A stretch of DNA of 64,000 nucleotides from an uncultured delta proteobacterium (GCA_963737265.1 CAVTRY010000015.1:32001-96000); one strand, 5' to 3'. Counted from the stretch's first letter, positions 5,087 through 29,576 are shown. Notes: a model not told the origin generated them from the letters alone. Made by a program: numbers and translations.

Positions 5087-5174
5087 CTCCATTTTCGGCA
5101 CCGCCCCGATGCGATCATCGCGGCGCCTTTTTGCGCGGCCCCAATTTGGGGCATAAGGTTTCGTAAGTGCATTG

Positions 5175-10818: not shown

Positions 10819-12060
10819 GACGAACTGTCCGTGCCCGCCCTGGATTGCAGTCCCTGATACAGGCAGAGTGCCCGGGTAAGACGCCCCCGCCACGTCGCTG
10901 CTGAGCGTGTTGCTCGGCCAGGGCCCGTCGAGCGAGGCGTTCCCGCCAAGGATGCAGCTCGCGTCCGCGCACTGGTCGAGCTTCCAGGCCACGCCGCTGA
11001 TGTTGTTCTGCGACATCCACGCGAACCAGAGGTTGGCCTCGTCCGCGCAGACGTAGTTGTGATTTTGGGCGAGTCCCCCGTCGGAGAAGGTGGCGCCGAA
11101 TTCGGTCACGAACAGGGCGATGCCACCCGCGATGGCCTTGTCGCCCAGGCTGCGGAACGATTGTCCGTGTGTGCACGAATACCAGTGCAGGGTGTAGAGC
11201 AAGTTGGTGCCAACCACCGGATCCGCGGCCGCCTGATCGACCCGCTGAGACCATTGCGGCGTACCTAGGACCATCAGATTGTCCGAACCCGCGGCGCGAA
11301 CCGCGTCGACCACTGCCTGGTGATAGGCCTTGATCTGCGGCCAGGTGGGGCCGGCCGGTTCGTTGTACGGCTCCCAGATTACATTCGGGTAGGCACCGTA
11401 CTTGGTCGCCATTTCGGTGAAGAAAGCGACGGCGGCCGTCTGCTGATTCACCTGCGGATCCGCCGCCGCCGCCACCTCGGTGTGCCAGTCGACCAGCACG
11501 TAGACGCCGAGCTCGATGGCGTTTTGGATCACGGCCTCGACCTTACTGTTCATGCCGACGGGATCGGTCAGATATCCCCCCGATTGCTCGGTGCCCATGG
11601 ACGCGCGAATCACCGAGAGATTCCAGTGGTCGCGCATGTACTTGAGTGCATTCTTGCTTTCGGCGAAGGGCAGGCTCTCCCACGCGAGCCACATGCTGCT
11701 GGCGCCCTTGAGCTGGAAGGGCGTTCCATTCTGGTCCACGAGCTGGCTGCGCACGATCGGACTTGCCGCATCGGCGGCCGGACTTCCGCCGTCTACCGCC
11801 GGAGTTCCGCCGTCCGCCGCCGGACCTTCCCCGCCAGCGAGAGGATTTTCGCCTGCATCGACCGTCGGAGTGGTCACCACCGTCGCGACCACGCTCAGCC
11901 GACCATGGATAGCCACCGGAGATCCTACCGGAGCGCTTCCCGCATCGGGGCCCTGCCAGTTATCCGAGGGATTATCCGAGGAAGGAGTGCTGGCGCACCC
12001 GATGGACAAGCAGAGCGCTGCGGAAACGACTAAAGACATCGAACTACTACGACTTCGCAT
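10798..12060 (-). CDS. Glycoside hydrolase family 5 (cellulase-like) lipoprotein
   Basis: Lipobox SIGC; VLVDWH, WEPYNEP acid/base, YTLHWY, FVTEFG nucleophile. Confidence 0.9.
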   Translation of the reverse strand: MRSRSSSMSLVVSAALCLSIGCASTPSSDNPSDNWQGPDAGSAPVGSPVAIHGRLSVVATVVTTPTVDAGENPLAGGEGPAADGGTPAVDGGSPAADAASPIVRSQLVDQNGTPFQLKGASSMWLAWESLPFAESKNALKYMRDHWNLSVIRASMGTEQSGGYLTDPVGMNSKVEAVIQNAIELGVYVLVDWHTEVAAAADPQVNQQTAAVAFFTEMATKYGAYPNVIWEPYNEPAGPTWPQIKAYHQAVVDAVRAAGSDNLMVLGTPQWSQRVDQAAADPVVGTNLLYTLHWYSCTHGQSFRSLGDKAIAGGIALFVTEFGATFSDGGLAQNHNYVCADEANLWFAWMSQNNISGVAWKLDQCADASCILGGNASLDGPWPSNTLSSDVAGASYPGTLPVSGTAIQGGHGQFVVNWMGQ

Positions 12061-12445
12061 CACGATCCTCTCGGGTTGTGTTCGAAAAAATGGACTGCCC
12101 CGGAGTACGCAGGGACTTGGCGGAAGAACCCGGATAGAAGGCAAAATGGGCATGCGCACCGACGCAAAATTCCGATGTAGCCAGCGCCGACAGTCGGTGC
12201 GGCGTAGGTGCGTCGAGCAGGATCCATTCCGGCCCCTGGCCCCGTTTCGCCGCGCACCCGAGCCACACCCATGTGGTGCGCACATACGTATGAATGGTCG
12301 GCAGTAGTGCGGCCGATCTTGAGGCCCGCTTCCACGGACGCACCGAATCGGCCATGATGGTCTCGTCCTTGGAATCTCGCGTCCAATTCCAGAATCGCCG
12401 GATTGCCTTCGCCGAATATGGCGATCCGGTCGGCCTCCGCTTTCT

Positions 12446-13253
12446 CTAGCCCGCGCGTTCTTCGAGAAAGCCGAGCACTCTCTCGACAAACATTCCCGGC
12501 CCCGTGGACATAGCGGCGTGGCCCTGCCCGTGCAGTTCTTCGATGCGGCTGCCTGCCACGGCGGCGCTGGCCATCTTGGTTGCAGCGTGCATGTAGTCGG
12601 GGCTGATGCTGCCGACGAGGAAGAGCGTGGGCACACGGACATGGGCGAAGGTCTCGGCGGCAAAGCGGTAGGTGTTGGCGATGCCGACTTCGCGCGGGAT
12701 GGTGGGCGCGGCCTGCACGCGCACGGGCCAGCTCGACGAACGGCGCAGGCGCTCGAACGTCGCTGTCGTCCAGCCGAATCACCTCGCGCAGAAAGCCCTC
12801 GACCACGGCTTCGTGCTTGCCGGCGGCGAGCAGGGCCTGCAGGCGGTGCGCGAGATCGGCGGCGAAGATCAAGCCCCGACCGGGCAACGGCAAGGGCGGC
12901 TCGTAGAGAACCATTTTGGCGATGCGGGTGGTAAGGCGCGAAGCCTCCAGCGAGCAGATGGCGCCGTAGGAGTGGGCCAGGACGCACGCAGGTTCCGGCG
13001 TCGCATCGAGTACGGCGGCCACGTCCTCGAATTCCCTTTCGATGGCATACGCGGGACCATCGCCACTTTTGCCGCGTCCGCGCCTGTCGACCAGGTACAG
13101 CGAAAAGCGCTCGGCCAGCCTAGTCACGATGGTGCCCCAGCGGGTGTGATCGAGGGTGGTACCGTGCACCATCACGAGCGGCTGCCCGTGGCCCCGCCGT
13201 TCGAAGGCGATGCGGGTTCCGTCCTTGGATTTGACCGTTTCGATGAGGCGCAT
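12446..13253 (-). CDS. Alpha/beta hydrolase, +1 frameshift near 12756
   Basis: SKDGTRIA, VHG, DRRGRGKS and AHSYG nucleophile in one frame; GQGH catalytic His in ORF 12446-12724. Confidence 0.8.
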
Positions 13254-13648: not shown

Positions 13649-14659
13649 CTATTCCGAAATCCGCACCAACTGCTTGCCCCGATTCTCGCCCGAGAACAGC
13701 CTAGCCAGGGCGGCCGGCGCATTTTCGAAGCCCTGAACCACATCGACGCGATCCTTGATCCGACCCTCGGCAAACCACGCCGCTAGCGCAGCGGTTGCTT
13801 CGTTGGCGCGGGTCATGTAGTCCGTGACCACGAAGCCCTCCATCCGACCTCTGCGAGTGAGGAGACGAAGATAGGCCTTGGGCCCAGGCGCTGGTGCATC
13901 TAGGTTGTAGGTAGAGATGGCGCCACAGATCACGATCCGGCCGCGCATGGCGAGGTTGCCTAAAGCCGCGTCGAGAGCGGCGCCGCCGACGTTGTCGAAA
14001 AACACGTCGACACCCTTTGGACAGGTCAGGCGCAGGCGGGTGAGCAGGTTCTCATTCTTGTAGTCGATGGCGGCGTCGAAGCCTAGCTCGTCGGTGAGGT
14101 AGCGACACTTTTCGGCGGACCCGGCGAGGCCCACGACACGGCAGCCCAGAAGCTTGGCGATCTGGCCAACCACCGAGCCGGTCGCCCCGGCGGCGCCCGA
14201 CACCAGCACGGTCTCTCCCGCCTTGGCCTGGCCGATGTCGAGTAAACCAAAATAGGCGGTCATGCCGGTGAGGCCGAGCACGCTCATGCCGTTTTCCAGG
14301 GGAATTCCATCGGGGATGGCATTCATGAACGTGGTCTGCCCAGGCCGAACGCAGGCGTAGTCCTGCCAGCCGAAAATCCCCTGTACGCGTTGACCCACGG
14401 GAAAACCCGGGTCGAGGGAGCGGACGACCTCGCCTCCGGCAATGCCGCGCATGACCTCGCCAATGGGCACCGCCGGCAGGTATGTGTCATAGGCCATCCA
14501 GCCGCGCTGGGTGGGGTCGCAGGATAGAAGATCAATGCGTACGAGGACTTCCCCGTCGGCGACTTCGGGGATAGGGGACTCGGTAAGTCGGAAATCGGCG
14601 GGGCATACCAATCCATTGGGCCGCCGGGAAAGTCGCCATTGTCGGTTCGTAATTCGCAT
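13649..14659 (-). CDS. NADP-dependent oxidoreductase (MDR; prostaglandin/alkenal reductase, CurA-like)
   Basis: SCDPTQRGWM, GMTAYFGL, SGAAGATGS, FFDNVGG, CGAIS, GENRGK. Confidence 0.9.
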   Translation of the reverse strand: MRITNRQWRLSRRPNGLVCPADFRLTESPIPEVADGEVLVRIDLLSCDPTQRGWMAYDTYLPAVPIGEVMRGIAGGEVVRSLDPGFPVGQRVQGIFGWQDYACVRPGQTTFMNAIPDGIPLENGMSVLGLTGMTAYFGLLDIGQAKAGETVLVSGAAGATGSVVGQIAKLLGCRVVGLAGSAEKCRYLTDELGFDAAIDYKNENLLTRLRLTCPKGVDVFFDNVGGAALDAALGNLAMRGRIVICGAISTYNLDAPAPGPKAYLRLLTRRGRMEGFVVTDYMTRANEATAALAAWFAEGRIKDRVDVVQGFENAPAALARLFSGENRGKQLVRISE

Positions 14660-14716
14660 CGATTTTTCCTGAATCGCTCAAGCGGGCCCGCACATCCAGC
14701 GGGGCGAGAGTCAATC

Positions 14717-14825
14717 TAGCCAGGCGGAGTTTGCTGGCCACACTTGCCTTTCCCGTAGTCGAATGCAATAATCAGTTTAGCCGAGTGGAGTTTGCTTGGC
14801 CACTTTGCCTTTTTTCTAATCGAAT
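14717..14825. repeat. Imperfect ~48-bp tandem repeat (61-bp period) in the divergent promoter region of the cluster
   Basis: TAGCC..GGAGTTTGC(T)TGGCCAC..TTGCCTTT..TA.TCGAAT at 14717-14764 and 14778-14825. Confidence 0.7.
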
Positions 14826-14833
14826 AGACCTTC

Positions 14834-15994
14834 ATGACAGAATCAAACGGTTTCGACCTCAGCCCCGCCCAACGCGAGCGCGTGGATGCGGTCCTTCGCT
14901 TCGCTCGAAGTCGCCTTTCACCGGGTGCTCGCGAACGAGAAGCCAAGAGTGTATTCGAACGAGGTCTGTGGACCGAGGCTGCCGACTTTGGCTTGACCGG
15001 ATTGCCCGTCCCCGAGGAATGGGGTGGGGGCGGCCTGGACGCCGTGGACACGATGTTGGTGATTGAGGCCCTGGGCCGCGGCTGCGAAGACGGTGGCCTG
15101 GTGTTCTCGCTTTGTGCGCACATGTTCGCTTCGGTGGTGCCCATTTGGCGATCTGGTGCGAAGGAGCTGCACGAACGCTATCTGAGCGATCTGGCGGCGG
15201 GGAAAATCATTTGCGCCAACGGTACCAGCGAGCCCGAGGCCGGCTCGGATGTGCACGCCATGAAGGCCACTGCCCGTCGCGACGGCAATGGCTATGTCCT
15301 CGATGGCACCAAGTGTTTCATCACCAACGCGCCGGTTGCCGACCTATTTTTGATCTACGCAAAGACCAACCCAGCAGCCGGATTCATGGGGATTTCCGCC
15401 TTTCTCGTTCCGCGGGCAAGCCAAGGTCTTCGCGTCGTTCCCGAACATGGCAAGAACGGCCTGCGCACATCGCCGTGGGGCACGATCTACCTTGAGGAAT
15501 GCCGCGTGCGCGAGGGCGACCGGATGGGTCCCGAGGGCTGCGGGGCTGCCCTGTTCGGTGAGTCGATGGTGTGGGAGCGTTGCTGCCTGTTCGCCTACTA
15601 CGTCGGCGCCATGGCGCGCAGCCTCGACCAATGCATCGATCATGTGCGCTCGCGCCAGCAATTCGGTCATCGCATCGCCAGCTACCAGTCCGTCGCGAAC
15701 CGCATCGTGGACATGAAGCTGCGGCTCGAAACGAGTCGCCTCCTGCTTTACCGTGCCGGCGAGCTGCACCGCCTGGGCAGGCGCTGCGACGAAGCCGTGG
15801 CCATGTGCAAGTTGTGGATCTCCGAGGCGGCCGTTCAGTCGGGGTTGGACGCCATCCAGATCTTCGGCGGCTCGGGCGTGGTGACCGATACGGGGGTCGA
15901 CGCGCTGCTGCGCGATGCCGTGCCGGCGCAGATCTTCTCGGGCACCTCGGAGATGCAGCGGATGATTATCGCGCGAGCGCTGGGCGTCTTCTGA
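14834..15994 (+). CDS. Acyl-CoA dehydrogenase family; probable L-prolyl-S-PCP dehydrogenase (PltE/RedW/PigA-like)
   Basis: SEPEAGSD, GTKCFITNAP, RQQFG, QIFGGSG, IFSGTSEMQR; translationally coupled to a Pro-type A domain. Confidence 0.8.
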   Translation: MTESNGFDLSPAQRERVDAVLRFARSRLSPGAREREAKSVFERGLWTEAADFGLTGLPVPEEWGGGGLDAVDTMLVIEALGRGCEDGGLVFSLCAHMFASVVPIWRSGAKELHERYLSDLAAGKIICANGTSEPEAGSDVHAMKATARRDGNGYVLDGTKCFITNAPVADLFLIYAKTNPAAGFMGISAFLVPRASQGLRVVPEHGKNGLRTSPWGTIYLEECRVREGDRMGPEGCGAALFGESMVWERCCLFAYYVGAMARSLDQCIDHVRSRQQFGHRIASYQSVANRIVDMKLRLETSRLLLYRAGELHRLGRRCDEAVAMCKLWISEAAVQSGLDAIQIFGGSGVVTDTGVDALLRDAVPAQIFSGTSEMQRMIIARALGVF

Positions 15995-17574
15995 TGCCCA
16001 CAGAGACGCGCATAGATCGGTTGGTCGCGCCGATTGCCAAGCTTGCGCCCGATCGCATCGCCGTCGACGGTGTGGGCGAGGCTCTGAGTTATCGCGACCT
16101 CGATGCCTTGGCCAACCGCTTCGCTCGACTTTTCCGCCGCATGGGCGTGGTCCCTGGCGACCGGGTGGGCGTGCATGTGCCGCGCTCGGGTCGCACGGTG
16201 GCCGCCATGCTCGGCGCTTCGCGCGCCGGCGCGGTGTACGTGCCACTCGATCCGAGTTCGCCGCCAGCGCGCATGAAGGTTATCGCCAACGACTGCGGAC
16301 TGGCCCACGTCGTGATCACGCCGGCGCTGCTGGACAACTGGTTGGCCGCGGGTGTGAGCGCGCCGATCCGCCATTTTTTTCTGGCAGCCGATGGGCCGGT
16401 GCCTGCGTTGCCCGCTGGTATCGCCGTTCATCCGTGGTCGGAAGTCATGGCCGAGGATAACGGTCCCGTGGTGGCACCCTCTGACTCGCCCGACGACCTG
16501 GCCTATCTGCTTTACACCTCGGGTTCGACTGGGACGCCCAAGGGCGTGATGATCTCCCATCGCAACGCGCTCGCCTTTTCCGAATGGGCCGCCGAACAGA
16601 TAGCGCTGTCGGCTGACGACCGGGTGGCCTCCGTCGCGCCCTTTCACTTCGATCTGTCGGTCTTCGATCTGTGGGCCTCGCTGTCGCGCGGATCGACCAT
16701 CGTGATCGTGGACGAAAGCATGGTGCTTTCGGGCGCGCGCATGCTTGACCGGATTCGCGAGAAATCCATCACCGTGTGGTACTCGGTGCCGACGGCGCTG
16801 GTGCTGATGCTCGAAAGCGGCGGGCTGGCAGCACGAGGCGCGCCGTCGCTACGCGTGGTCTTCTTCGCGGGCGAGGTGTTTCCCGCACGCCACTTGCGGC
16901 GGACCATGGCGGCGCTGCCCGAGGCCCGGTTCTTCAATCTCTTTGGTCCCACGGAGACCAACGTCTGTCTAGCCCACGAGGTGACGCGCAGCCCAGTCCA
17001 GCACGGCGATGTTATTCCCATCGGCCGCCCAAGTTGCGGAAACAGCGTATGGATCGTCGACGAGCATGGTCAACCCGCACCCGATGGCACGGTCGGCGAA
17101 CTTCTTGTGGACGGCCCCACCGTCATGCTCGGCTATTGGGCCGCGGGCCAGCGAACGCGGGCGCCGCGGCCTTACCCAACCGGCGATTTCGTGGCTCGGC
17201 GTCCTGATGGTGAAATCATGTATCGCGGCAGGCGCGACCACATGGTCAAGGTGCGTGGCTTTCGCATCGAATTGGCCGAGGTCGAGGCGGCGCTTCTTCG
17301 TCACGAAGGGATTCGCGAAGCCATCGCCATGGCCATCGAAGGTCAGTTGGTCGCGGTGGTGCAACCCTCCGACTCCCAGCTTTCGGTGTTGGCCATCAAA
17401 CGCCATGCCGCCACCCACCTGCCTCCGTACATGATCCCCACCGACATCCGCCTGGTGGCCGAAGTTCCCCGCACATCGAGCGGGAAGGCCGATCGCGTGC
17501 GACTAAGAAACGCCGTGGTAGGGGGCGACATCCTTGTATTGAGGCCGTTCGGTCAATCCGCCAATGGGAGTTGA
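15994..17574 (+). CDS. Stand-alone adenylation enzyme; probable L-proline:PCP ligase (PltF/RedM/PigI-like)
   Basis: YTSGSTGTPKG, FHFDLSVF, WYSVP, FAGE, NLFGPTETNVC, TGD, SGKADR; pocket read by eye as about DLFYFALVCK. Confidence 0.8.
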   Translation: MPTETRIDRLVAPIAKLAPDRIAVDGVGEALSYRDLDALANRFARLFRRMGVVPGDRVGVHVPRSGRTVAAMLGASRAGAVYVPLDPSSPPARMKVIANDCGLAHVVITPALLDNWLAAGVSAPIRHFFLAADGPVPALPAGIAVHPWSEVMAEDNGPVVAPSDSPDDLAYLLYTSGSTGTPKGVMISHRNALAFSEWAAEQIALSADDRVASVAPFHFDLSVFDLWASLSRGSTIVIVDESMVLSGARMLDRIREKSITVWYSVPTALVLMLESGGLAARGAPSLRVVFFAGEVFPARHLRRTMAALPEARFFNLFGPTETNVCLAHEVTRSPVQHGDVIPIGRPSCGNSVWIVDEHGQPAPDGTVGELLVDGPTVMLGYWAAGQRTRAPRPYPTGDFVARRPDGEIMYRGRRDHMVKVRGFRIELAEVEAALLRHEGIREAIAMAIEGQLVAVVQPSDSQLSVLAIKRHAATHLPPYMIPTDIRLVAEVPRTSSGKADRVRLRNAVVGGDILVLRPFGQSANGS

Positions 17575-17587
17575 TAAGGAGTTAGCA

Positions 17588-17839
17588 ATGGAAGAACGCA
17601 TACACAAGACTATCCGCGACTATGTCGTCAGCACCTGGCTGTCCGGCGACGAGCGCGGCTTCGACGACAATACTGACCTATTGCAAGCCGGCATTCTGGA
17701 CTCGTTTAGTACCCTAAACATTGCGGCGTTTCTCGACGAGAGTTTCAAAACGCAGCTCGAACCTTCAGAGATTAATCCACAGAACTTTCGAAGCGTGGCG
17801 AGCCTAGCCGCGATCGTGATGGCCAAGTCGAACAGCTAA
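17588..17839 (+). CDS. Peptidyl/pyrrolyl carrier protein (PltL/PigG-like)
   Basis: GILDS phosphopantetheine site, C-terminal NFRSV; AAGGAG RBS. Confidence 0.8.
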   Translation: MEERIHKTIRDYVVSTWLSGDERGFDDNTDLLQAGILDSFSTLNIAAFLDESFKTQLEPSEINPQNFRSVASLAAIVMAKSNS

Positions 17840-17855
17840 TCAGGAGGAAATTACC

Positions 17856-18080
17856 ATGGAAGACACCCTTAGAACCGTCGTAGCCAAGATTGCCGAGATT
17901 ACCCCAGACTTCGAGGCCGATGCCGGACTGCGTGACGACCTTGGCGTGGACTCGGTTCGCGCGCTCGAGCTTATTTTCGAGATCGAAAGGACCCTGGCCG
18001 TCAAGGTGCCGGACAATCGCTATGGGCGAGTGCGAACGTTCAAAGACTTGGTCGCCCTCGTGAGCGATCTCAAGAACTGA
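17856..18080 (+). CDS. Acyl carrier protein
   Basis: LGVDS phosphopantetheine motif, 74 aa, AGGAGG RBS. Confidence 0.9.
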   Translation: MEDTLRTVVAKIAEITPDFEADAGLRDDLGVDSVRALELIFEIERTLAVKVPDNRYGRVRTFKDLVALVSDLKN

Positions 18081-18090
18081 GATTTTCCAC

Positions 18091-19317
18091 GTGTCCTCGC
18101 GACGGAATGTCGTCATCACGGGCTGCGGCGTGGTGAGCGCGGCCGGCAACGACCTCGAGGGCTTCTGGAACGCCCTCATGGCCGGGGCCACTCTCATCGC
18201 TCCGCTCAAGAACTACTCGGCGCCCGAGCTGGATATTCTCTGGGGCGGTGAGGCGACTCTCGACGGTGAGGACGCGATACCAACCGGTGAGGCGACCATG
18301 GCTCGCCGTGAGCGCTGCGATCTGCTGGCCCTGGCTGCGTGCCGCCGTGCCCTGGACCACGCGGGGCTTTGGGGGAACGCGGAGAAGCTGGCGGATACGG
18401 GCGTGGTCATGGGTACGACCGTCGGCGAGGAGCGCCAGGTGGGCGAACTCAGCGAGCGCTGGCCCGCCGAGGGTACGGATGCTCTGGACGCTGGATTTTT
18501 CGACCGGGTGGACAACCACCGACTGGCGGCGTCGCTTGCCACTCGCTTCGGCATGGGTGGTCCCGTGCTTCTCAATGCAACGGCGTGTAGCTCGGGCAAC
18601 GCGGCCGTGGCTTGGGCCTTCGATCTGGTGGCGGGCGGCCAATGCGACGTGGTGGTCGCGGGCGGAGCCGATACTTTCACGCGGCTGCTCTACAACGGCT
18701 TTTCGCGCATGAGTGCCCTATCCAAGGGCGCGTGCAAACCGTTCGATAAGCATCGCGATGGGGTGTCCTTCGGCGAAGGGGCGGGTGTCGTGGTGGTAGA
18801 GTCGCTCGATCATGCGCGCACTCGCGGCGCCCGGGTGCTGGCCGAAATTGGAGGTTATGGCATCAGCAATGACGCCCATCACGTCACCGCGCCCGAACCC
18901 AATGGGGCGGGCTATGTTCGCGCCATTCGGCAAGCGCTTGCGACCAGCGCCACCAATCCGGCGCGCGTGGGTTACATCAGTGCTCACGGCACAGGTACGC
19001 CGTACAATGACCAGGGCGAAGTGCGGGCCATCAAGGCCGTGTTTGGCGACCGAGCGAACGCCATTCCCATCAGTTCGATCAAATCGATTATCGGGCACAC
19101 CAACGGAGCCGCCGGAGCCATCGCCACCATCGCGTGCGTCCTTGCGCTTGCTCATCAGAGGGTTCCACCCACCGCCGGCCTGGTCGAGCCAGACCCCGAG
19201 TTCGGCCTCGACTTCGTGGTTGGGGCGGGACGTCCGGTGACGCTTGATACATGCCTTAACCTTTCGGCCGGCTTTGGCGGCATGAATGCCTGCCTCTTGC
19301 TGGCGAGGGCGCCATGA
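18091..19317 (+). CDS. Type II beta-ketoacyl synthase (FabF/KS-alpha-like, catalytically intact)
   Basis: TACSSG, HGTGT and GHT give the Cys-His-His triad. Confidence 0.9.
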   Translation: MSSRRNVVITGCGVVSAAGNDLEGFWNALMAGATLIAPLKNYSAPELDILWGGEATLDGEDAIPTGEATMARRERCDLLALAACRRALDHAGLWGNAEKLADTGVVMGTTVGEERQVGELSERWPAEGTDALDAGFFDRVDNHRLAASLATRFGMGGPVLLNATACSSGNAAVAWAFDLVAGGQCDVVVAGGADTFTRLLYNGFSRMSALSKGACKPFDKHRDGVSFGEGAGVVVVESLDHARTRGARVLAEIGGYGISNDAHHVTAPEPNGAGYVRAIRQALATSATNPARVGYISAHGTGTPYNDQGEVRAIKAVFGDRANAIPISSIKSIIGHTNGAAGAIATIACVLALAHQRVPPTAGLVEPDPEFGLDFVVGAGRPVTLDTCLNLSAGFGGMNACLLLARAP

Positions 19318-20501
19318 CCCGGCCGTCGCCAGTTGCCATCACCGGCGCGGCCGTCATCACACCGCTCGGCGACAGTCCGGCGGCTTTGGCCCGAGCGCTG
19401 CTGGAGGGACAATCCAAAATCGCGCCCATGACCAATTTTCCAGGTGTGTGGGCTTCTCGTCTGGAGGACTTCGACGCCACTCGCTACGCCAACGTACGCG
19501 GCATGCGGGTCTACAACCGGGCCTCGCGCATGGGCATTGCGGCCACCCGCCTCGCTCTCGTGGACGCGGGGCTAGAAAATGCGGGTCTTTCCGGCGACGA
19601 ACTGGGCATCGTGACCGCTTCGTCCTTCGGTCATCTCGATACCTTGATTGAATATGACCGGAGTCTCGTCGGGCAAGGGCCTTCGCGCACCAATCCTGCG
19701 CTCATGCCGCTGGCCATTCCCAGCGCGCCTGGCGCAGTCATTGCTCTGTCATTCGCGGCCAAGGCGTTTTCCATTACGCTGGCAGCTGGGGGCGCAAGTT
19801 CGCTCGATGCCCTGGGACTTGGCGCGCGTCTCATCCGCGATGGGCGCGCACGTGTTTGTGTGGTGGTATCGGCGTTTTCGCTTACCGACGAATTCTTGTT
19901 GTCGGCGGCGCGCGCGTCGGTGCTCGCTCCTCTAGATGGATTTCGGCCTCTCGACATCGCCAGCCGAGGTACCGCGTTCGGCGAAGCGGCGGCGGCCGTG
20001 GTTCTCGAATCCGTGCAGACCGCGCAGTCCCGCGGCCGGCGAGCGCGTGGTCTTGTGCGCGGCCAATCTTCCCGCTTTGCTCCCACTAGAAACCTGCTAC
20101 CGGCGGCTCTCGTTCGCGCCGCGACCGGCGCCTTGGCGAACGCGGGAATCACACCCGAGGAACTAGCTCTGGTTAGTACCGGCGCCAACGGCGTGCCCGA
20201 GGATGACCGGGCCTTGGCGGCAGGCCTCGGCGACGTCGTCGGTAAGTCCGCCACGCCGGTCGCCGCGTTCAAATCGATGCTCGGCGAGACCGTCGAGTGC
20301 GCGGGGCTCCTGCACACGATTGTTGCGCTGGAATTCTTGAGCGCAGGCCGTGCCGCGGGCATCGCGCGTTTGGCCACGCCCATCCTTCCAGGGCTTGCCT
20401 ACCTGACTCAGTCGTCCGTGTTGAGCGGCCCCCACGCGCTCGTCACCGCCAGCTCGCGCACCGGCGCCGTGTCGGCCTTGGTGGTATCCGCGCATGACTA
20501 A
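19314..20501 (+). CDS. Non-catalytic ketosynthase partner (chain-length-factor-like)
   Basis: KS fold ([18 protein letters not shown]) with the triad replaced (GGASS, GANG, GET); ATGA-coupled to the KS. Confidence 0.8.
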
Positions 20502-21242
20502 TGCCGATTCCAACGAAAGACGCGTTGCCATTGTGACCGGCGGATCGCGCGGCATCGGACGTGCCATCGTTGAGCATCTGGCGCGGTCTGGCGTCGATGT
20601 CACCTTTACCTATGTCAGCAACGAAGCCGCGGCCAACGCGGTATCCGAAATGTCGGGTTCGCTCGTGCGCGCCGTGCGCGTGGATGCCCGCGACGCCAGC
20701 GCGTGCGCACATCCTTCGTCGAACGGGTCATTGCCGAGCACGGTTGTGTCGACTTACTCGTCAACAACGCCGCGGTGATTCGCGATCGTTTATTGGCCAT
20801 GATGACCCTTCCCGACTGGTCGGTCGTTCTCGAAACCAGTCTCAATGGGCTTTTCGGCACGACCCAACCCGTGGCCAAGCAAATGATGCGCCAGCGTCGG
20901 GGCCGCATCGTCAACCTGACCTCGGTTTCGGGTGTGACAGGGATTGTCGGACAGACGAACTATTGCGCGGCCAAGGCCGCGATTATCGGGTTCACACGAT
21001 CTTTAGCTAAGGAGCTGGCGCCAGTCGGTGTCGTGGTGAATGCAGTGGCGCCGGGCTTCGTGGACACCGATATGCTGGCCGGCTTCTCCGAAGAACAGCG
21101 CGCGAACGCTATGGCTCGCGTGCCCATGCGGCGCTTTGCCACAGCGGACGAGATCGCCGAACTGGTGGGCTACCTTGGCCTTCAAGCCCCGAGCTATCTG
21201 ACCGGCCAAACCCTGATCATCGACGGAGGGCTAACAGCGTAG
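20494..21242 (+). CDS. 3-oxoacyl-ACP reductase (FabG-like SDR), frameshift near 20710
   Basis: TGGSRGIG in ORF 20494-20778; NNAAV, YCAAK and VAPGFVDT in ORF 20703-21242. Confidence 0.85.
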
Positions 21243-21248
21243 CTTCAT

Positions 21249-21896
21249 GTGGAAGAAACAAATGCCAACAGCAAGGACGTCGAAAGGATCGCCGTGATAC
21301 CAGAGTTCGTGCGAAAGGGTCTCAGGGGTGCGTTGTCCCTCGTGGCGCGCGAGCACGCCGCACCAGCGTCCAACATCCCGCCTGAGAAGTTGTCCTTGCG
21401 AGACCTTCTTGCCGAGGATTTCGCAACCCACGACGGTCTATTGATGGAACCTGGATTCTGGGCCGTGGCGGTGCATCGCCTGGGCGAACGCGCGACCGGC
21501 GCAGGGCTCGCGTGTGGCCCTCTGGTCATGGCGCACCGGCTCCTGGCCACGGCCGTGGATTGGACCTGGGGTATTTACCTGCCCACAAGCGTCCGTCTCG
21601 GGCGCCGCGTGCGCATCTGGCATCACGGTTCCATTGTCATCAACGCACGCTCCGTCGGCAACGACGTGCATCTCCGCCAGAACACCACCATCGGCCCGGT
21701 GTATTTGCGCGACGCCAATCGCCCGGAGTGCCTGCCCGTGCTTGGCGACGGTGTCGATATTGGCGCCGGAGCCTGCGTACTCGGCGGCGTCTCGGTAGGC
21801 ATCGGGGCGATCGTCGGGGCTAACAGTGTTGTCGTGGACGATGTCCCTGGCGGCGCCACCGCGTTTGGCGTTCCCGCGCGAATTTTGCTCGCATGA
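21249..21896 (+). CDS. Hexapeptide-repeat (LbH) O-acyltransferase, serine-acetyltransferase/WcaB-like
   Basis: LLAEDF..PGFWAVAVHRLG, IWHHG, IGAGACVLG, VGANSVV, GVPAR. Confidence 0.85.
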   Translation: MEETNANSKDVERIAVIPEFVRKGLRGALSLVAREHAAPASNIPPEKLSLRDLLAEDFATHDGLLMEPGFWAVAVHRLGERATGAGLACGPLVMAHRLLATAVDWTWGIYLPTSVRLGRRVRIWHHGSIVINARSVGNDVHLRQNTTIGPVYLRDANRPECLPVLGDGVDIGAGACVLGGVSVGIGAIVGANSVVVDDVPGGATAFGVPARILLA

Positions 21897-22507
21897 CTCG
21901 ACCGCTCCATTACAACCGTCCTGTCGTCCATTTCGCCAGCAATGGCGAAACCGATGGCAATCCGAAGAGTATCGGCATCCTGGCGCTCTTGGCCGAGGAT
22001 TTTCGTACCCACGGCAGCGATCCGTTTTCGCCGGGGTTTTGGGCGCTGGCCGTCCATCGTTTTGGCAACTGGCGCATGGGAGTGCGGCGAAAGCTGCTGC
22101 GGGCGCCCTTGTCCGCGATGTACCGGACCGCCGACAACGGGATCGTCGCATTGTGGGGCATTTCTTTGCCGTACAAAATCCGTGTTGGCCGGCGCCTGCG
22201 CCTAGGGCACCACGGCTGCATCATCATGGGTGCGAGGGAAATCGGCGACGACGTGACGGTTCAGAACAATGTGACCATTGGGCTGTTCAGACGAAACGCG
22301 CAGGAGCTTCCGACCATCGGAAATCGCGTAGAGCTGGGCGCGGGCGCGTGCATCGTGGGCGGGGTTTCCGTCGGCGACGATTGCCATGTGGGTCCCAAGA
22401 CGGTACTGGCACGTTCACTCAAGCCCGGCACGGCTGTGCTGGGGATTCCGACTCGTCAGGTGGACCTGGAAGGACTACGGAAGAAGCGAGGATCGATGGA
22501 AGGCTAG
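21893..22507 (+). CDS. Second LbH O-acyltransferase paralogue
   Basis: LLAEDF..PGFWALAVHRFGNWRM, LGHHG, LGAGACIVG; ATGA-coupled to the first. Confidence 0.85.
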   Translation: MTRPLHYNRPVVHFASNGETDGNPKSIGILALLAEDFRTHGSDPFSPGFWALAVHRFGNWRMGVRRKLLRAPLSAMYRTADNGIVALWGISLPYKIRVGRRLRLGHHGCIIMGAREIGDDVTVQNNVTIGLFRRNAQELPTIGNRVELGAGACIVGGVSVGDDCHVGPKTVLARSLKPGTAVLGIPTRQVDLEGLRKKRGSMEG

Positions 22508-23442: not shown

Positions 23443-25292
23443 CCCTGCCCTTGCGTCTCGCTGTGGGTATCGTTTGCCTAGCCGCCACGCTCGCCTCCGC
23501 GAAGAGCGCGCGGGCGCGCGACGACGAGCACGTTTGCCGCGAGTCCGCCGACACGCGCATCTGGTGGTCACCGCTGGCGCCCGAGGCGGGGGCGAGGCTT
23601 CGCATCTTGGTGGTAAGCGAGGATGTACGGGATGGCGAAATCCAGGTGACCTTGCCGGGACAGATGCCGCGGCGGATCGCGACCTCGAAGCGCGGCGGAC
23701 CGCCTTTCAGCTTCGCAGCCGACTTACTTCCGTCCAAGCCCGGCAACCTGCGCGTCGATCTGGTTCGCAACAACGAATCCGTCGCGTGCCGTCGCATTTC
23801 CATCGCGGTCCATGGCCACGCGACCGCGCCAGCGCGCGGGGAAAGCCCAGGGGCTTGGCACGCCACCCAGGAATGGAGCCGCGCCACCGAGAATTTCTTT
23901 TCGGCGTGGATCGAGCGCATGTTCGATGCGCCGGCCGACGAGTCGCTGGGCTTTCCCTCGCTGGCGCCGGTGTTGCACGATCCCGCGCGCAACTTTCTGT
24001 GGGGCTACCTCGGCTTGCGCGAGGACGATCCCAAGAATCGCGACATTCCGCGCGCGGTGCCCGACTGCGCGGACTTGCCCTATTACCTGCGGGCCTATTT
24101 CGCCTGGAAGATCGGGCTGCCGTTCGCGCTACGCGACTGCGACCGAGGCAAGACCGACCGGCCGCCGAAATGCGGGTCAATCCTGCACAACGAACAGGCC
24201 GAGGATTCCATTCGCGGCCACGGCGCGCTCGAACGATTTCGCGCCTTCTTGCGCGTGCTCGCCAATCGCGTGCACTCGGGCAGCGCGCGTACCGCCCTCG
24301 ACGACGACGAGACGGATTTCTACCCGGTGGCGCTCACACGCACGGCCCTGCGGCCGGGGACCATTTACGCCGATCCCTTCGGTCACGTGCTCATGGTTGC
24401 CGCCTGGATCGACCAATCGCCCATGAGCGGTGGCTTGCTTTTCGCCGTGGACGGCCAGCCCGACAATTCCGTGGGCCGCAAGCGCTTCTGGGAAGGCACC
24501 TTCATGTTCGCCAGCGACACCGCCAGCGCCGGCCCGGGCTTCAAGGCCTTTCGGCCGATTGTTCGCACGCCCAAGGGTGACGCCGCGTTCGCGCCGCTGC
24601 CCAATCAAGCCTTGCGCGCCGACCGCCGCTTTGCTCCCTTTTCCGACGAGCAGGCACACCTCGATCGCGACACCTTTTACGCGCGCATGGCCAAGCTGAT
24701 CAATCCGGCGGGCCTGGACGCGCGTGCGGCCTACGCCGAGACCATGAATGCCCTGGTGGAACAGCTCACCACGCGCGTCGGCTCGGTCGCCAACGGCGAG
24801 CGCTTCATGCGCGAGAAGAACAACCCGGTGGTGCCCATGCCGGTGGGACCGAAAATCTTCGAAACGGTCGGACCGTGGGAAGATTATGCGACGCCTTCGC
24901 GCGACATGCGCCTGCTCATCGCCCTGCGCGTTCTGACCGGCTTGCCGGCGCGCATTTCAGAGCACCCCGACCTGTTTATGCTGGGCGGACGCGCGCCAGC
25001 GGCGGTGCGGGCGGAAATCGAAGGGCTGCACGAGCGGCAGATTCGCGAACGCGGCGTCGACTACCAACGCAGCGACGGCTCGACCTTTCGCCTCACCGTG
25101 GCCGACATCCTCGCCCGCCGGGCCACGCTGGAGATGGCGTACAACCCGAACGACTGCGTCGAGATTCGCTGGGGGGCGAGCGAGGGAAGCGGCGACTTCG
25201 CCACCTGCAAGCGCCATGCGCCCGAAGAGCAGCGAGCCCAAATGCAGGAATTCCGCGCCTGGTTTCACGAGGCCCGCCGGCCGCCACGCTGA
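23439..25292 (+). CDS. Exported protein with a putative papain/NlpC-P60-like Cys-His dyad
   Basis: Signal peptide; DCADLPYYLRAYFAWK and LRPGT...GHVL; GTG start overlaps the rhomboid stop. Confidence 0.6.
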   Translation: MTLPLRLAVGIVCLAATLASAKSARARDDEHVCRESADTRIWWSPLAPEAGARLRILVVSEDVRDGEIQVTLPGQMPRRIATSKRGGPPFSFAADLLPSKPGNLRVDLVRNNESVACRRISIAVHGHATAPARGESPGAWHATQEWSRATENFFSAWIERMFDAPADESLGFPSLAPVLHDPARNFLWGYLGLREDDPKNRDIPRAVPDCADLPYYLRAYFAWKIGLPFALRDCDRGKTDRPPKCGSILHNEQAEDSIRGHGALERFRAFLRVLANRVHSGSARTALDDDETDFYPVALTRTALRPGTIYADPFGHVLMVAAWIDQSPMSGGLLFAVDGQPDNSVGRKRFWEGTFMFASDTASAGPGFKAFRPIVRTPKGDAAFAPLPNQALRADRRFAPFSDEQAHLDRDTFYARMAKLINPAGLDARAAYAETMNALVEQLTTRVGSVANGERFMREKNNPVVPMPVGPKIFETVGPWEDYATPSRDMRLLIALRVLTGLPARISEHPDLFMLGGRAPAAVRAEIEGLHERQIRERGVDYQRSDGSTFRLTVADILARRATLEMAYNPNDCVEIRWGASEGSGDFATCKRHAPEEQRAQMQEFRAWFHEARRPPR

Positions 25293-25387
25293 CTGTGGTT
25301 AGATTCCTACCTGGTGTGAGGAACCGCCTCGTGCGTGATGAAATGTTTTTCTAGTGCTGTCGATGTATGTCCTATGATCGAGGGACC

Positions 25388-25978
25388 ATGGTGAGCACAC
25401 GCGACGATGAGGCGGGATTCACCCTGACCGAGCTCATGGTGGTCGTTGTGATTCTTTCCCTGCTAGCCGCGCTCTCGACGCCGCTGTTCACGAAGGACAA
25501 CAACGCGCGCCGGGGCCGCGACTGGGCCAAGGCGGTGGCGCAAACCCTCCAGCGCGCACGCTTTCAGTCCCTGGGAGACAGGGCGAACATTCACGTCATG
25601 CTCTACCGCACGCGCATCGACATGTACCGCGAGGAACCGGCGCCTGCGGCGACGGGAACCTTCACCCTGCTCAGCACGACCAATGGCCCCACCGCCGCCG
25701 CGACAGCCACCGTGGCAATCTGGGATGCGAAGACAGACGGCACGAGCCCCACGGGCCAGAACGCCGCGCTGACCGGTGCACCTGTCCCGCCCACGACAAC
25801 TCCCGCGGCGAATGAAATCATCTTCACCCCGCTCGGCGGGACGCTCACCAACTCCAATTGGCAGGTGTTCGTTCGCAACGAAATTCTTCCATCGGCCCAT
25901 CCCGATGCATCGTTCAGCGTCACCGTCGGCGGCTTGACGGGCTTCATTTCGTCGCGAAACAAGGTGACCTTGCCTTGA
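25388..25978 (+). CDS. Type IV minor pilin, FimT/FimU-like
   Basis: Prepilin motif AG|FTLTELMVVVVIL. Confidence 0.8.
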   Translation: MVSTRDDEAGFTLTELMVVVVILSLLAALSTPLFTKDNNARRGRDWAKAVAQTLQRARFQSLGDRANIHVMLYRTRIDMYREEPAPAATGTFTLLSTTNGPTAAATATVAIWDAKTDGTSPTGQNAALTGAPVPPTTTPAANEIIFTPLGGTLTNSNWQVFVRNEILPSAHPDASFSVTVGGLTGFISSRNKVTLP

Positions 25979-26439
25979 GGAGTGAAGGCGGCTTTACGCT
26001 GCTCGAGGTCCTGATGGCGATGCTCATCGGTTCCATCGGACTGATGGGCACGATCGCGGTTCAGCAATCGATCACCAACGCCGCGAAGAACGCCAACGAC
26101 GCTGCGGTCGCGCTTCGCTTGGCCACGCAAAAGGCGGACGAGCTTGGCAGCCGCTCCACCGATACCCAAACCACCGACAGCGCGCGTGGGTTGGCGCCGC
26201 TTGCCGGGGGGGCTTGGTCGGCGGCCGAATTCGTCGACGCCCAGGGCGCAACGCTGGCAAGTGTAACGTCGTCCGGCACCAGCGCGACCGCCTTCAGCTA
26301 TCGATGGATCCGCCAGTGGAAGGTCACCAACGACGGCACCGGCATGCCCTATGTCATCTCGGTCATCGTGACGTTCACCAACGACGCTGGCGATCCCAAG
26401 ACCACGCGCCTCGACATCGAGCGAAGGAAATCATGGTAG
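25975..26439 (+). CDS. Type IV minor pilin, PilV-like
   Basis: GG|FTLLEVLMAMLI; TTG start overlaps the previous stop. Confidence 0.8.
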   Translation: MRSEGGFTLLEVLMAMLIGSIGLMGTIAVQQSITNAAKNANDAAVALRLATQKADELGSRSTDTQTTDSARGLAPLAGGAWSAAEFVDAQGATLASVTSSGTSATAFSYRWIRQWKVTNDGTGMPYVISVIVTFTNDAGDPKTTRLDIERRKSW

Positions 26440-27785
26440 GGCGCGCACCACGCCCACGGTCCAGCAGCGCTGGAATGACTTTGGTCGAGATCATGATCAC
26501 CCTGGTCATTTCCTCGATTATCGCCGCGTCGACCTTCCTGTTCTTCGCCGGTCAACAGCGCATCTACGAAACCCAAACCAAGATTCTGAATATCCAGCAG
26601 AACGCGTGGGCCTCCATCGAGGTTTTGTCCCGCTACGTGCGCGCCGCGGGAAGTGGCATGTACGAGTGCGTGCGCCCGGCGGATTACGCGAACCCGACGA
26701 CCGGCGAACGTCTGTCTAGCTCGATTCCGGACGACGGACCGGTGACGAGCGGTGGCGCCGTCATCACGAGCCTTGCGGCTCGGCCGCAGACCGGGATTCG
26801 CGCCTACGACCAGGTCGGAGGCGTCCAGCGCATTCCGCCGTTGTGGATCGTCAACAACTCGACCAGCGACACCATCGCTGGCATGGCGGTGGTCCAGGGC
26901 ACCGATATCCTCACCGTGGCACTCGGAAATAGGACCTCGGGCACCGACACCGACGCAACCCTCGCGGCGGCCGTCGGCCAGACCGATCCGGGTACGATTT
27001 TCAATCTCGTCGGCGCCGGCACCGGCAGCATGTTTCGCGCGAGCGAGTTTGTCCTCTTGCTGGCCACGCCGCTGTGGAGCTACGGCATCGATCCATCGGC
27101 CGACCGGGGTTGTAGCCTGTTTCAGATCACGAGCGACCCCACCGGGGGCACGACCTTGCTGCACGCGTCGGGTTCGCCCCCCGGTGGCAGCCCATGGAAT
27201 CCCGTGGGCAACGTCACGGCGATGCTGCCCGTGGGCGGCTACGTTGCAGCCCAGGCGGGGGTGCGCAATTTCGGTACGCTCACCTGGGTGCGGTTCTTCA
27301 TCCGTTACGATCCCGGGACCCTCCCGGGCAGCGCGGGTTCGCCCCCGATTCCGCAGCTCATGATGCAACGGCTGGACCTCAGCCCTTCAAACACACCCCA
27401 AGTCCTCGCGGATGGAATCGAAGACCTGCAAATTGCCTTCGCCTGCGATGTCGGCACCGCCCTCGGGCCAGATCTGACCCAATTGGATGGTACCTTCAGC
27501 GAAGGCAGCGACGACATCTCTCGTCGCCGCGACGAATGGTGGAACAATGTCCCGGGCGACAACCCGCCCGCGCTCGGGGCCGCCGGCTTTTGCAACCTAC
27601 CCACGGCTGTTCGCTTGACCCTGGTCGCCCGATCGCTGACCCCGGATGACCTGATCGACCCGACCGCGACCAACAACGGGCCGTCCGACATCGAAGACCA
27701 TCGCTATTCACCTCGCCCGGTCGATCAGTTCCGCCGCCGGGTCCTCTCCACCACGGTCTACCCGCGCAACAACAAGCCCTGGTAG
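26433..27785 (+). CDS. Type IV minor pilin, PilW-like
   Basis: AG|MTLVEIMITL; LADGIEDLQIAF, VRLTLVARS and C-terminal PRN. Confidence 0.85.
   Translation: MVGRAPRPRSSSAGMTLVEIMITLVISSIIAASTFLFFAGQQRIYETQTKILNIQQNAWASIEVLSRYVRAAGSGMYECVRPADYANPTTGERLSSSIPDDGPVTSGGAVITSLAARPQTGIRAYDQVGGVQRIPPLWIVNNSTSDTIAGMAVVQGTDILTVALGNRTSGTDTDATLAAAVGQTDPGTIFNLVGAGTGSMFRASEFVLLLATPLWSYGIDPSADRGCSLFQITSDPTGGTTLLHASGSPPGGSPWNPVGNVTAMLPVGGYVAAQAGVRNFGTLTWVRFFIRYDPGTLPGSAGSPPIPQLMMQRLDLSPSNTPQVLADGIEDLQIAFACDVGTALGPDLTQLDGTFSEGSDDISRRRDEWWNNVPGDNPPALGAAGFCNLPTAVRLTLVARSLTPDDLIDPTATNNGPSDIEDHRYSPRPVDQFRRRVLSTTVYPRNNKPW

Positions 27786-27895: not shown

Positions 27896-29576
<1,681 letters not shown>

Follow-up and report, generated by a model that had tools for sequence, protein, structure and literature searches.

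Can a pyrrole starter formed on a peptidyl carrier protein (PCP) be extended by a discrete ketosynthase pair? This question is raised by a compact gene cluster at positions 13649-22507 of a 64,000-nucleotide stretch of DNA from an uncultured delta proteobacterium (GCA_963737265.1, CAVTRY010000015.1:32001-96000), the whole of which is called the window here. Pyrrole starters feed type I polyketide synthase (PKS) lines and fused PigJ/RedX enzymes, and the known starters of discrete pairs of a ketosynthase (KS) and a chain length factor (CLF) are acetate, aryl groups and a few more. We consider it probable that the locus is an orphan cluster in which pyrrolyl-S-PCP primes the KS/CLF on a dedicated acyl carrier protein (ACP), a ketoreductase (KR) and a medium-chain dehydrogenase/reductase (MDR) reduce the chain, and a variable tail releases it. 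If true, a pyrrolyl-primed discrete KS/CLF joins both toolkits and extends type II PKS chemistry to a heteroaromatic starter. The genes are arranged as follows, with positions counted in the window.

12060-13253, minus strand: alpha/beta-hydrolase gene adjoining the MDR gene (Pfam Abhydrolase_6, Abhydrolase_1, Hydrolase_4)
13649-14659, minus strand: MDR of the CurA / leukotriene-B4-dehydrogenase (alkenal/enone double-bond reductase) type (Pfam ADH_N_2 and ADH_zinc_N)
14660-14833: divergent intergenic region of 174 bases between the MDR gene and the PigA-like gene, a putative promoter region by gene coordinates only
14834-15994, plus strand: L-prolyl-[carrier protein] dehydrogenase of the PigA/RedW/PltE type, acyl-CoA-dehydrogenase fold (NF053553, PigA)
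15994-17574, plus strand: stand-alone adenylation (A) enzyme, PltF-like, predicted to load L-proline (Pfam AMP-binding and AMP-binding_C)
17564-17839, plus strand: PCP, predicted prolyl/pyrrolyl carrier (PDB matches; no Pfam match)
17856-18080, plus strand: discrete ACP, predicted to carry the extender unit and the growing chain (Pfam PP-binding, 42.3 bits)
18091-19317, plus strand: KS with an intact Cys-His-His triad (Pfam ketoacyl-synt and Ketoacyl-synt_C)
19314-20501, plus strand: CLF-type KS-like partner without the catalytic triad (Gly160, Gly290 and Glu325 at the triad positions)
20494-21242, plus strand: FabG-type KR, split in the window between two frames (20494-20778 and 20703-21242, each of which matches Pfam adh_short)
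21249-21896, plus strand: left-handed beta-helix (LbH) acyltransferase 1, LbH1, EpsC/CysE/WcaB-like (Pfam Hexapep, 24.1 bits)
21893-22507, plus strand: LbH acyltransferase 2, LbH2, a paralogue of LbH1 (Pfam Hexapep, 43.6 bits)

The ten genes between 13649 and 22507 were recovered, by open reading frame (ORF) listing and family scans, where a first-pass annotation of the DNA had placed them. All genes on that list are present; the list made no mention of the KR frame break at 20705-20706 or of the hydrolase gene at 12060-13253 on the minus strand. The plus-strand genes are separated by gaps of 6-16 bases or overlap by 1-11 bases, and the ATG of the A enzyme at 15994 falls one base into the stop of the PigA-like gene. 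Junctions this tight suggest that the plus-strand genes form one operon.

The first three genes of the operon resemble the enzymes that build pyrrolyl thioesters. The dehydrogenase scores 564 bits against the PigA equivalog model NF053553, above its cut-off of 500, and 431 bits against the RedW model NF045652, under its cut-off of 650. Its best match in the PDB is the L-prolyl-PCP dehydrogenase PigA (5zw0, 384.6 bits), followed by 6cxt_B (317.8 bits) and AnaB (4irn, 308 bits), and ordinary acyl-CoA dehydrogenases appear from ~230 bits down; the enzyme groups with PigA and is not an ordinary fatty acyl-CoA enzyme. The A enzyme is matched best over its whole length (residues 11-511) by PltF (6o6e_B, 375.3 bits) and exceeds the cut-off of TIGR01733 (367.7 bits against 317.4). 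When the ten pocket positions were placed on motifs of the window protein by what we take to be the GrsA numbering, the pocket code DLFYFALVCK of the first-pass annotation was reproduced. The code is kept as DLFY[F/Y/L]ALVCK in 33/33 orthologues, and by eye, in the PDB alignment, PltF departs from the window code solely by having Leu at the two Phe positions. These features point to a PltF-like enzyme with a proline-type pocket, for which proline loading is predicted. The nearest solved chains to the PCP are the Bmp1 carrier (6cxt_A), 5jdx, PigG (7thn_E) and PltL (2n5h), the last a weak match with an E-value of 0.0046, and the Asp-Ser attachment motif is kept in 36/36 orthologues. Curated-model scores, nearest structures, conserved residues and synteny all support the proposal, made at first pass, of a PltF/PltL/PltE-type trio that would make pyrrolyl-S-PCP.

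The next four genes encode the candidate extension module. The Asp-Ser attachment motif of the ACP is kept in 39/39 orthologues, and the matches of this protein to ACP models of the fatty acid synthase (FAS) type all fall under their cut-offs. The KS carries Cys166, His299 and His336, a triad that is kept in 43/43 orthologues. The CLF is 27% identical to the KS (105/389 aligned positions) and holds Gly160, Gly290 and Glu325 in the window at the corresponding places, so that the pairing of an intact with a triad-less KS stands as first described. Across 38 members of the CLF family, the Cys position is occupied by Gly in 31, Asp in 3, Ala in 3 and Glu in 1, never by Cys or Gln, and no member has a His at either His position. 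Because Gly/Gly/Glu replace the triad, the CLF is catalytically dead. It also lacks the Gln that CLFs use for acetate priming, which fits a starter formed beforehand.

Both subunits were compared with known families. The KS scores 358.8 bits against the FabF model TIGR03150, under the equivalog cut-off of 493.75, and 99.9 bits against the PigJ model NF053555, the cut-off of which is 900; the CLF does not match NF053555. The best non-FAS model for the KS is AmcF (261 bits, under the cut-off of 325). Placement of the KS and the CLF rests on bit scores against PDB chains, used in place of a tree against ApeO/ApeC and Iga11/12. By this measure the nearest solved relative of both subunits is the KS, KS-like and ACP assembly in PDB 9s5h/9s5i, titled '3-oxoacyl-(Acyl-carrier-protein) synthase'. 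The KS matches 9s5h_B with 323 bits, followed by FabF (~259), Iga11 (221), act KS (207) and AntD (188). The CLF matches 9s5h_C with 144.8 bits, which is the level of a neighbouring family and not of an orthologue, and the act CLF 1tqy_B with 99.5 bits. Chain 9s5i_E, an ACP, resembles the cluster ACP only weakly. In the fold search with the CLF model, 9s5h was not among the matches listed, and literature found for the code comprised unrelated papers only. The AlphaFold model of the CLF (mean predicted local distance difference test score, pLDDT, 90.9) adopts the thiolase fold, with Z values of 54-56 to FabF, the act CLF and Iga11. The C-terminal piece of the KR scores 217 bits against TIGR01830 and 184 bits against the NodG model. 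Scores, nearest structures, conserved residues and synteny are thus in line with the first-pass proposal that a discrete KS/CLF/ACP/KR set would extend a pyrrolyl starter.

The gene order provides further support. Loci were collected with the CLF as probe from species-representative genomes (6), metagenome contigs (60), a genome profile scan (4) and the genomes of relatives (5), which with the window gave 76 loci, or 65 after merging near-identical pieces. Their ORFs were annotated by iterated profile searches; an earlier tblastn search with the window proteins had missed divergent LbH, phosphopantetheinyl transferase (PPTase) and radical S-adenosylmethionine (SAM) genes. The core PigA-A-PCP-ACP-KS-CLF-KR, or whatever part of it a locus holds, is colinear in 62/65 loci (exceptions L038, L047 and L083), and 28/65 hold all seven core genes. 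Such colinear recurrence in deduplicated loci makes the arrangement far more frequent than chance would allow. In the genome profile scan, the other 75 of 80 loci are at most 33% identical in the CLF, and a PigA-like gene stands beside the KS or the CLF in 0/75 of these (L084-L158) against 4/4 of the remainder (L080-L083).

Environmental metagenomes (soil, peat and others) or metagenome-assembled genomes (MAGs) of Polyangiales type are the source of all 65 loci, and no cultured strain among the species representatives searched carries the core. Within 41 genomes of relatives, the CLF occurs in 6, all of the genus of the window (its own and 5/12 others), and in 0/28 of other genera. A representative library of 1.84 billion proteins contains 74 that reach E 1e-30 with the CLF, ~22 of them at orthologue level. 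None of the 120 homologues listed has an informative name, cluster look-ups of ten neighbour CLFs returned no characterized names, and the protein atlas gave generic KS clusters only, from Myxococcota, Verrucomicrobiota and Acidobacteriota.

These genes suggest the following pathway. The PltF-like A enzyme would load L-proline onto the PCP, and the PigA-type flavoenzyme would oxidize prolyl-S-PCP to pyrrole-2-carbonyl-S-PCP, two steps predicted because of strong homology. The pyrrolyl group would then pass to Cys166 of the KS, presumably paired with the inactive CLF, and condensation with malonyl-ACP would yield 3-oxo-3-(pyrrol-2-yl)propanoyl-ACP, as judged from the gene set and by analogy with PigJ and PigH. 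The FabG-like KR may reduce the ketone, again as the gene set implies; condensation and reduction are proposed because this gene set is strictly conserved. The later steps are more speculative. 2-(Hydroxyalkyl)pyrroles lose water readily via azafulvene-type ions, and the pyrrolyl carbinol might likewise dehydrate easily, or FabZ might be borrowed. The product at this point would be a pyrrolyl-acrylyl thioester, the C=C of which is the substrate type of a CurA-like MDR, and the MDR could reduce this conjugated bond. Further rounds of extension are possible. The tail would finally free the chain from the ACP, speculatively by two EpsC/WcaB-like LbH enzymes here and, in relatives, by a condensation-adenylation-thiolation-thioesterase (C-A-T-TE) nonribosomal peptide synthetase (NRPS) or a family 2 glycosyltransferase (GT2) with LbH enzymes.

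The MDR is proposed as the C=C reductase of the pathway. Its domains (ADH_N_2 and ADH_zinc_N) and its best NCBIfam match, NF058644 CurA, confirm the divergent MDR of the alkenal-reductase type seen at first pass. This match is the best yet lies under the cut-off (332.7 bits against 440), which places the MDR in the CurA subfamily and not as a CurA equivalog. Neighbourhoods were compared in 16 fully flanked loci, defined by all seven core genes and at least 3 kb on both sides and including the window. In 12/16 an MDR gene is found no more than 5 kb from the core; in L047, L066 and L080 it is the next gene after the KR and is encoded on the same strand. The adjoining hydrolase has weak NCBIfam matches only (e.g. 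BioH, 34.7 bits) and is found near the core in 1/16, the window alone; it does not belong to the conserved gene set and may be a hydrolase or thioesterase that was recruited.

The tail is the variable part of the locus. LbH1 and LbH2 (43% identical) score 90.3 and 70.1 bits against the EpsC model (cut-off 150), and 83.3 and 65.3 bits against CysE TIGR01172 (cut-off 210.65). The best PDB match of LbH1 is the E. coli-type serine acetyltransferase 1t3d (61 bits), and LbH2 reaches 52 bits against serine acetyltransferases in the PDB. In alignments with serine acetyltransferases, both proteins retain the catalytic His in the form of a His-His pair, and the places of Asp143, Asp157, Arg192 and His193, in what we take to be the E. 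coli numbering, are not kept. Given these sub-cut-off scores and lost residue places, LbH1 and LbH2 are not serine acetyltransferases proper, and a CysE or EpsC identity was rejected for both. LbH1 starts 6 bases past the KR stop and the LbH2 start overlaps the LbH1 stop; with this translational coupling to the KR in the window, the pair would be expressed with the PKS genes. Orthologues 62-66% identical to LbH1 lie within ~4 kb of a CLF match in G006 and G008. Twin LbH genes do end the cluster in the window, as first described. They are not a constant tail, since at least one LbH gene lies near the core in 9/16 fully flanked loci and none in 7/16, and their role in the pathway is less certain.

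Among the fully flanked loci, some also carry an NRPS A domain (2/16), an Sfp-type PPTase (3/16) or a B12-radical SAM gene (3/16). In L008, L011, L024 and L057 the KR is followed by C-A-T-TE NRPS modules of the MxcG/EntF-like type, which in the last two are cut off by the contig end. MxcG/EntF-like modules accept an aryl-carrier donor, and the A-domain pocket of these tails, about DILQ-GLVWK, resembles what we take to be the glycine code. GT2 genes directly follow the KR in L050, L055, L065 and L067, two of which (L055 and L065) show the one-strand arrangement KR-GT2-LbH1-LbH2; in L073 and L082 a GT2 gene accompanies the LbH pair. In the genome of the window, no GT2 adjoins the cluster. A gene for a B12-binding radical SAM enzyme, which may methylate the product, was observed beside the core in L024, L036, L037, L059 and L082; the L036 copy scores 329.5 bits against TIGR04190, under the cut-off of 500. 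No more than a few kb from the core, genes for a WecG/TagA glycosyltransferase, a Wza-like exporter and a Wzc kinase were seen in L030, L031, L036, L068, L072, L073 and L082.

Several observations weigh against a pyrrolyl-primed KS/CLF pathway. By PDB bit scores the KS is closer to FabF than to Iga11 or the act KS, and it could be a FAS-like elongase. Family scans find no dehydratase, thioesterase or malonyl transferase encoded in the operon, in agreement with the first-pass annotation for the former two, and the annotated families of recurrent flanking ORFs, several of them without a Pfam match, yielded no dehydratase either. No stand-alone FabD above the TIGR00128 cut-off is present in the 99.5% complete assembly. 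The dehydrogenase has a strong relative in AnaB as well. The KR of the window is broken as printed and is read in two frames. G020 and G013, neither of which gave a CLF match, encode LbH proteins that share 47-55% identity with LbH1 and fall in its subfamily; since the subfamily occurs without the PKS core, the link of the LbH pair to the pathway is not secure. As a side observation, the only TIGR00128 matches in the assembly are two acyltransferase (AT) domains within ORFs of 1862 and 1662 residues, on contigs C7 and C16. Near the C7 ORF lie a PPTase-like gene and an acyl-CoA dehydrogenase, and another PKS-type cluster is probably located there.

The KR break bears on whether the cluster is functional here. 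A metagenome contig with ~93% DNA identity to the window (L020) holds an intact KR of 249 residues with the usual motifs of short-chain dehydrogenases/reductases, and in the alignment with it the window has 2 extra bases at 20705-20706. Both KR halves share one frame in all related loci. Contigs from public sequencing runs that lie on the stretch show a single indel, the absence of 2 letters at 20705 in runs X1, X2 and X3, with depths of 4 (at the site), 20.6 and 4.2. X2 and X3 represent related strains. The other listed full-length pieces of X1 are identical to the window, in a comparison covering only those parts of the stretch with X1 contigs; X1 is taken as the same strain because these pieces show no differences. 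Its depth is low and it perhaps comes from the same sample as the assembly. Other genes in the assembly are split as well. A GroEL-like (Cpn60) gene is divided between two ORFs in different frames at 27896-28570 and 28602-29564 on the minus strand of the window, which looks like a further assembly indel, and an acyl-CoA dehydrogenase gene on C7 (G000:C7:380191-381319; L006, L007) consists of two overlapping PigA-model pieces with a stop between them. Because three runs and the orthologues agree and other genes of the assembly are also split, the KR insertion is read as a consensus error, and the 2 bases are probably an assembly error. A real frameshift and a dead pathway, for which the two frames of the printed KR would speak, are very improbable in view of these contigs, the intact KR of the close relative, the further split genes and the integrity of every other gene of the cluster.

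The remaining alternatives concern the starter, the second carrier and the tail. AnaB, a prolyl-ACP dehydrogenase, reportedly stops at the pyrroline, a two-electron oxidation, in anatoxin biosynthesis. If the window dehydrogenase did likewise, the starter would be a 1-pyrroline-5-carbonyl thioester that the KS/CLF extends, which would allow cyclizations towards bicyclic alkaloids; the AnaB match of 308 bits is in keeping with this and the remaining gene set would be identical. Such a course is unlikely, since the PigA equivalog model is passed, 5zw0 (385 bits) is nearer than AnaB and the carrier is closest to carriers of pyrrole pathways. A different role for the second carrier is suggested by the aminocoumarins, in which CouN1/CloN1 is said to be a carrier shuttle. 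The second carrier could pass on a pyrrole-2-carbonyl group with which an acyltransferase esterifies an acceptor, the KS/CLF/KR building a separate short hydroxyacyl chain or using another substrate. Two carriers and two acyltransferases with no release enzyme encoded would agree with this shuttle. It is rendered improbable by the intact decarboxylating KS triad and the KR that are strictly conserved beside both carriers, by the absence of LbH genes from 7/16 fully flanked loci and by the lack of a conserved CouN7-type hydrolase, an alpha/beta-hydrolase being present in 1/16.

A separation of the tail from the pyrrole cluster deserves more weight and is possible, if on the unlikely side. The LbH pair, and the GT2 of relatives, may form a sugar or exopolysaccharide acetylation module that lies beside the pyrrole cluster, with the chain released otherwise. 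Both LbH proteins are EpsC/WcaB/CysE-like, relatives of the same subfamily exist in G020 and G013 without a CLF match, a GT2 domain stands beside the LbH array at one of the two places examined in G020, and WecG, Wza-like and Wzc genes are close to some loci. The junctions in the window argue for co-transcription of LbH1 and LbH2 with the PKS genes instead; moreover, LbH is the commonest neighbour of the core (9/16), lying by the KR end in several orientations, and KR-GT2-LbH1-LbH2 share one strand in L055 and L065. The pair may act on the pyrrolyl-acyl chain, acetylate its hydroxyl or decorate a sugar. The G020 genome holds six LbH copies in two places. At L159 (C1:174000-192000) the LbH array is accompanied by the GT2 domain and asparagine-synthase-like genes, and L160 (C1:211000-226000) contains LbH genes and no GT2 match. 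The GT2 and LbH combination is thus also found independently of the pyrrole cluster.

If the pyrrolyl-primed pathway is correct, known systems indicate what is new in it. The front end of prodigiosin biosynthesis that makes 4-methoxy-2,2'-bipyrrole-5-carbaldehyde (MBC; PigI/PigG/PigA/PigJ/PigH, or RedM/RedO/RedW/RedX/RedN) shares the proline-activating enzyme, the dedicated carrier and the PigA-family dehydrogenase. The next step there joins the pyrrolyl group to malonate on a second carrier and is carried out by a KS paired with an inactive KS-like protein. In contrast to the fused two-KS PigJ and the PigH of ACP-ACP-pyridoxal phosphate (PLP) enzyme architecture, the KS and the CLF are separate here, no PLP enzyme is encoded in the operon, and the chain would be reduced by the KR and the MDR instead. 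Pyoluteorin uses the same PltF/PltL/PltE trio to feed a type I PKS, whereas the window has discrete type II genes and, as noted at first pass, no halogenase in the cluster.

Discrete KS/CLF systems offer the complementary comparison. Aurachin of Stigmatella aurantiaca reportedly arises from an anthranilate-primed myxobacterial KS/CLF/ACP set with few extensions; by this description, both systems would use an amino-acid-derived aromatic starter, whereas the starters and loading enzymes differ. The ishigamide system (Iga10-13, Iga16) shares the discrete KS/CLF, ACP and KR, a non-aromatic product and the fold (Z ~54 to 6kxf/6kxd), but an Iga16-type dehydratase is absent here and the KS is nearer to FabF (259 bits) than to Iga11 (221). 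Iga12 was not among the best 60 of 70 PDB matches of the CLF. Aromatic minimal PKSs of the act type differ in the Gln at the CLF active site and in their cyclase/aromatase, neither of which is present here; the genes of the operon and of its flanks in the window match no cyclase/aromatase family in Pfam. For cispentacin, AmcF-AmcG is described as a KS/CLF-type heterodimer that extends a non-acetate starter by one C2 unit, on an ACP dedicated to it (PMC10698177). Its starter is different, and the window has no cyclization partners and an AmcF score under the cut-off. The imidacin paper describes another system. A pyrrolyl-primed discrete KS/CLF was not found in the literature searched, MIBiG and antiSMASH lying outside this scope; within that literature and the databases searched, no characterized cluster with this gene set was found, in agreement with the first-pass view that the architecture is not a recognized one.

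A further analogy concerns the tails. The Nod-factor machinery combines a specialized ACP, KS and KR (NodF, NodE, NodG), which build an unusual acyl chain, with the GT2 NodC and the LbH O-acetyltransferase NodL. The match of the KR to NodG and the GT2 and LbH tails of relatives recall this arrangement; no NodA-type transferase was seen, however, and a GT2 does not stand beside the cluster in this genome. It is conceivable, though doubtful, that a pyrrole-capped short acyl chain is built on its own ACP and that interchangeable tails, either a glycine-type NRPS or a GT2 with EpsC/NodL-like LbH enzymes, couple it to small polar acceptors, giving pyrrolyl-acyl amino acids and sugars by a Nod-factor-like logic. 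If this were true, uncultured Polyangiales of peat and soil might use such compounds as diffusible signals or to decorate their surface. Because the 65 loci come only from environmental metagenomes and MAGs, with no cultured strain among the representatives searched, the product of the cluster has very likely not been described, and heterologous expression would be the only way to reach it. Such expression is practical, given a cluster size below 9 kb and a modular tail.

The window is part of contig C15 of an assembly of 6.55 Mb in 25 contigs, with 99.5% completeness and 7.6% contamination. Relatives with named records are MAGs that carry the labels Myxococcales, Polyangiaceae, Polyangiales or Labilithrix, and the host is an uncultured soil myxobacterium of Polyangiales type. 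The cluster is flanked by housekeeping or unrelated genes, which encode an MMPL transporter, phosphoglucomutase, a GH5 cellulase, a rhomboid protein, type IV pilins, the GroEL-like protein, PanC and DnaJ. Two long ORFs of the window have no Pfam match, one at 5172-7271 (plus strand, 699 residues) and one at 23463-25292 (plus strand, 609 residues), the latter also without an NCBIfam match. The region downstream of the cluster, 25367-27785 on the plus strand, encodes type IV pilin-like proteins; N-terminal methylation motifs and a PilW domain occur among them.

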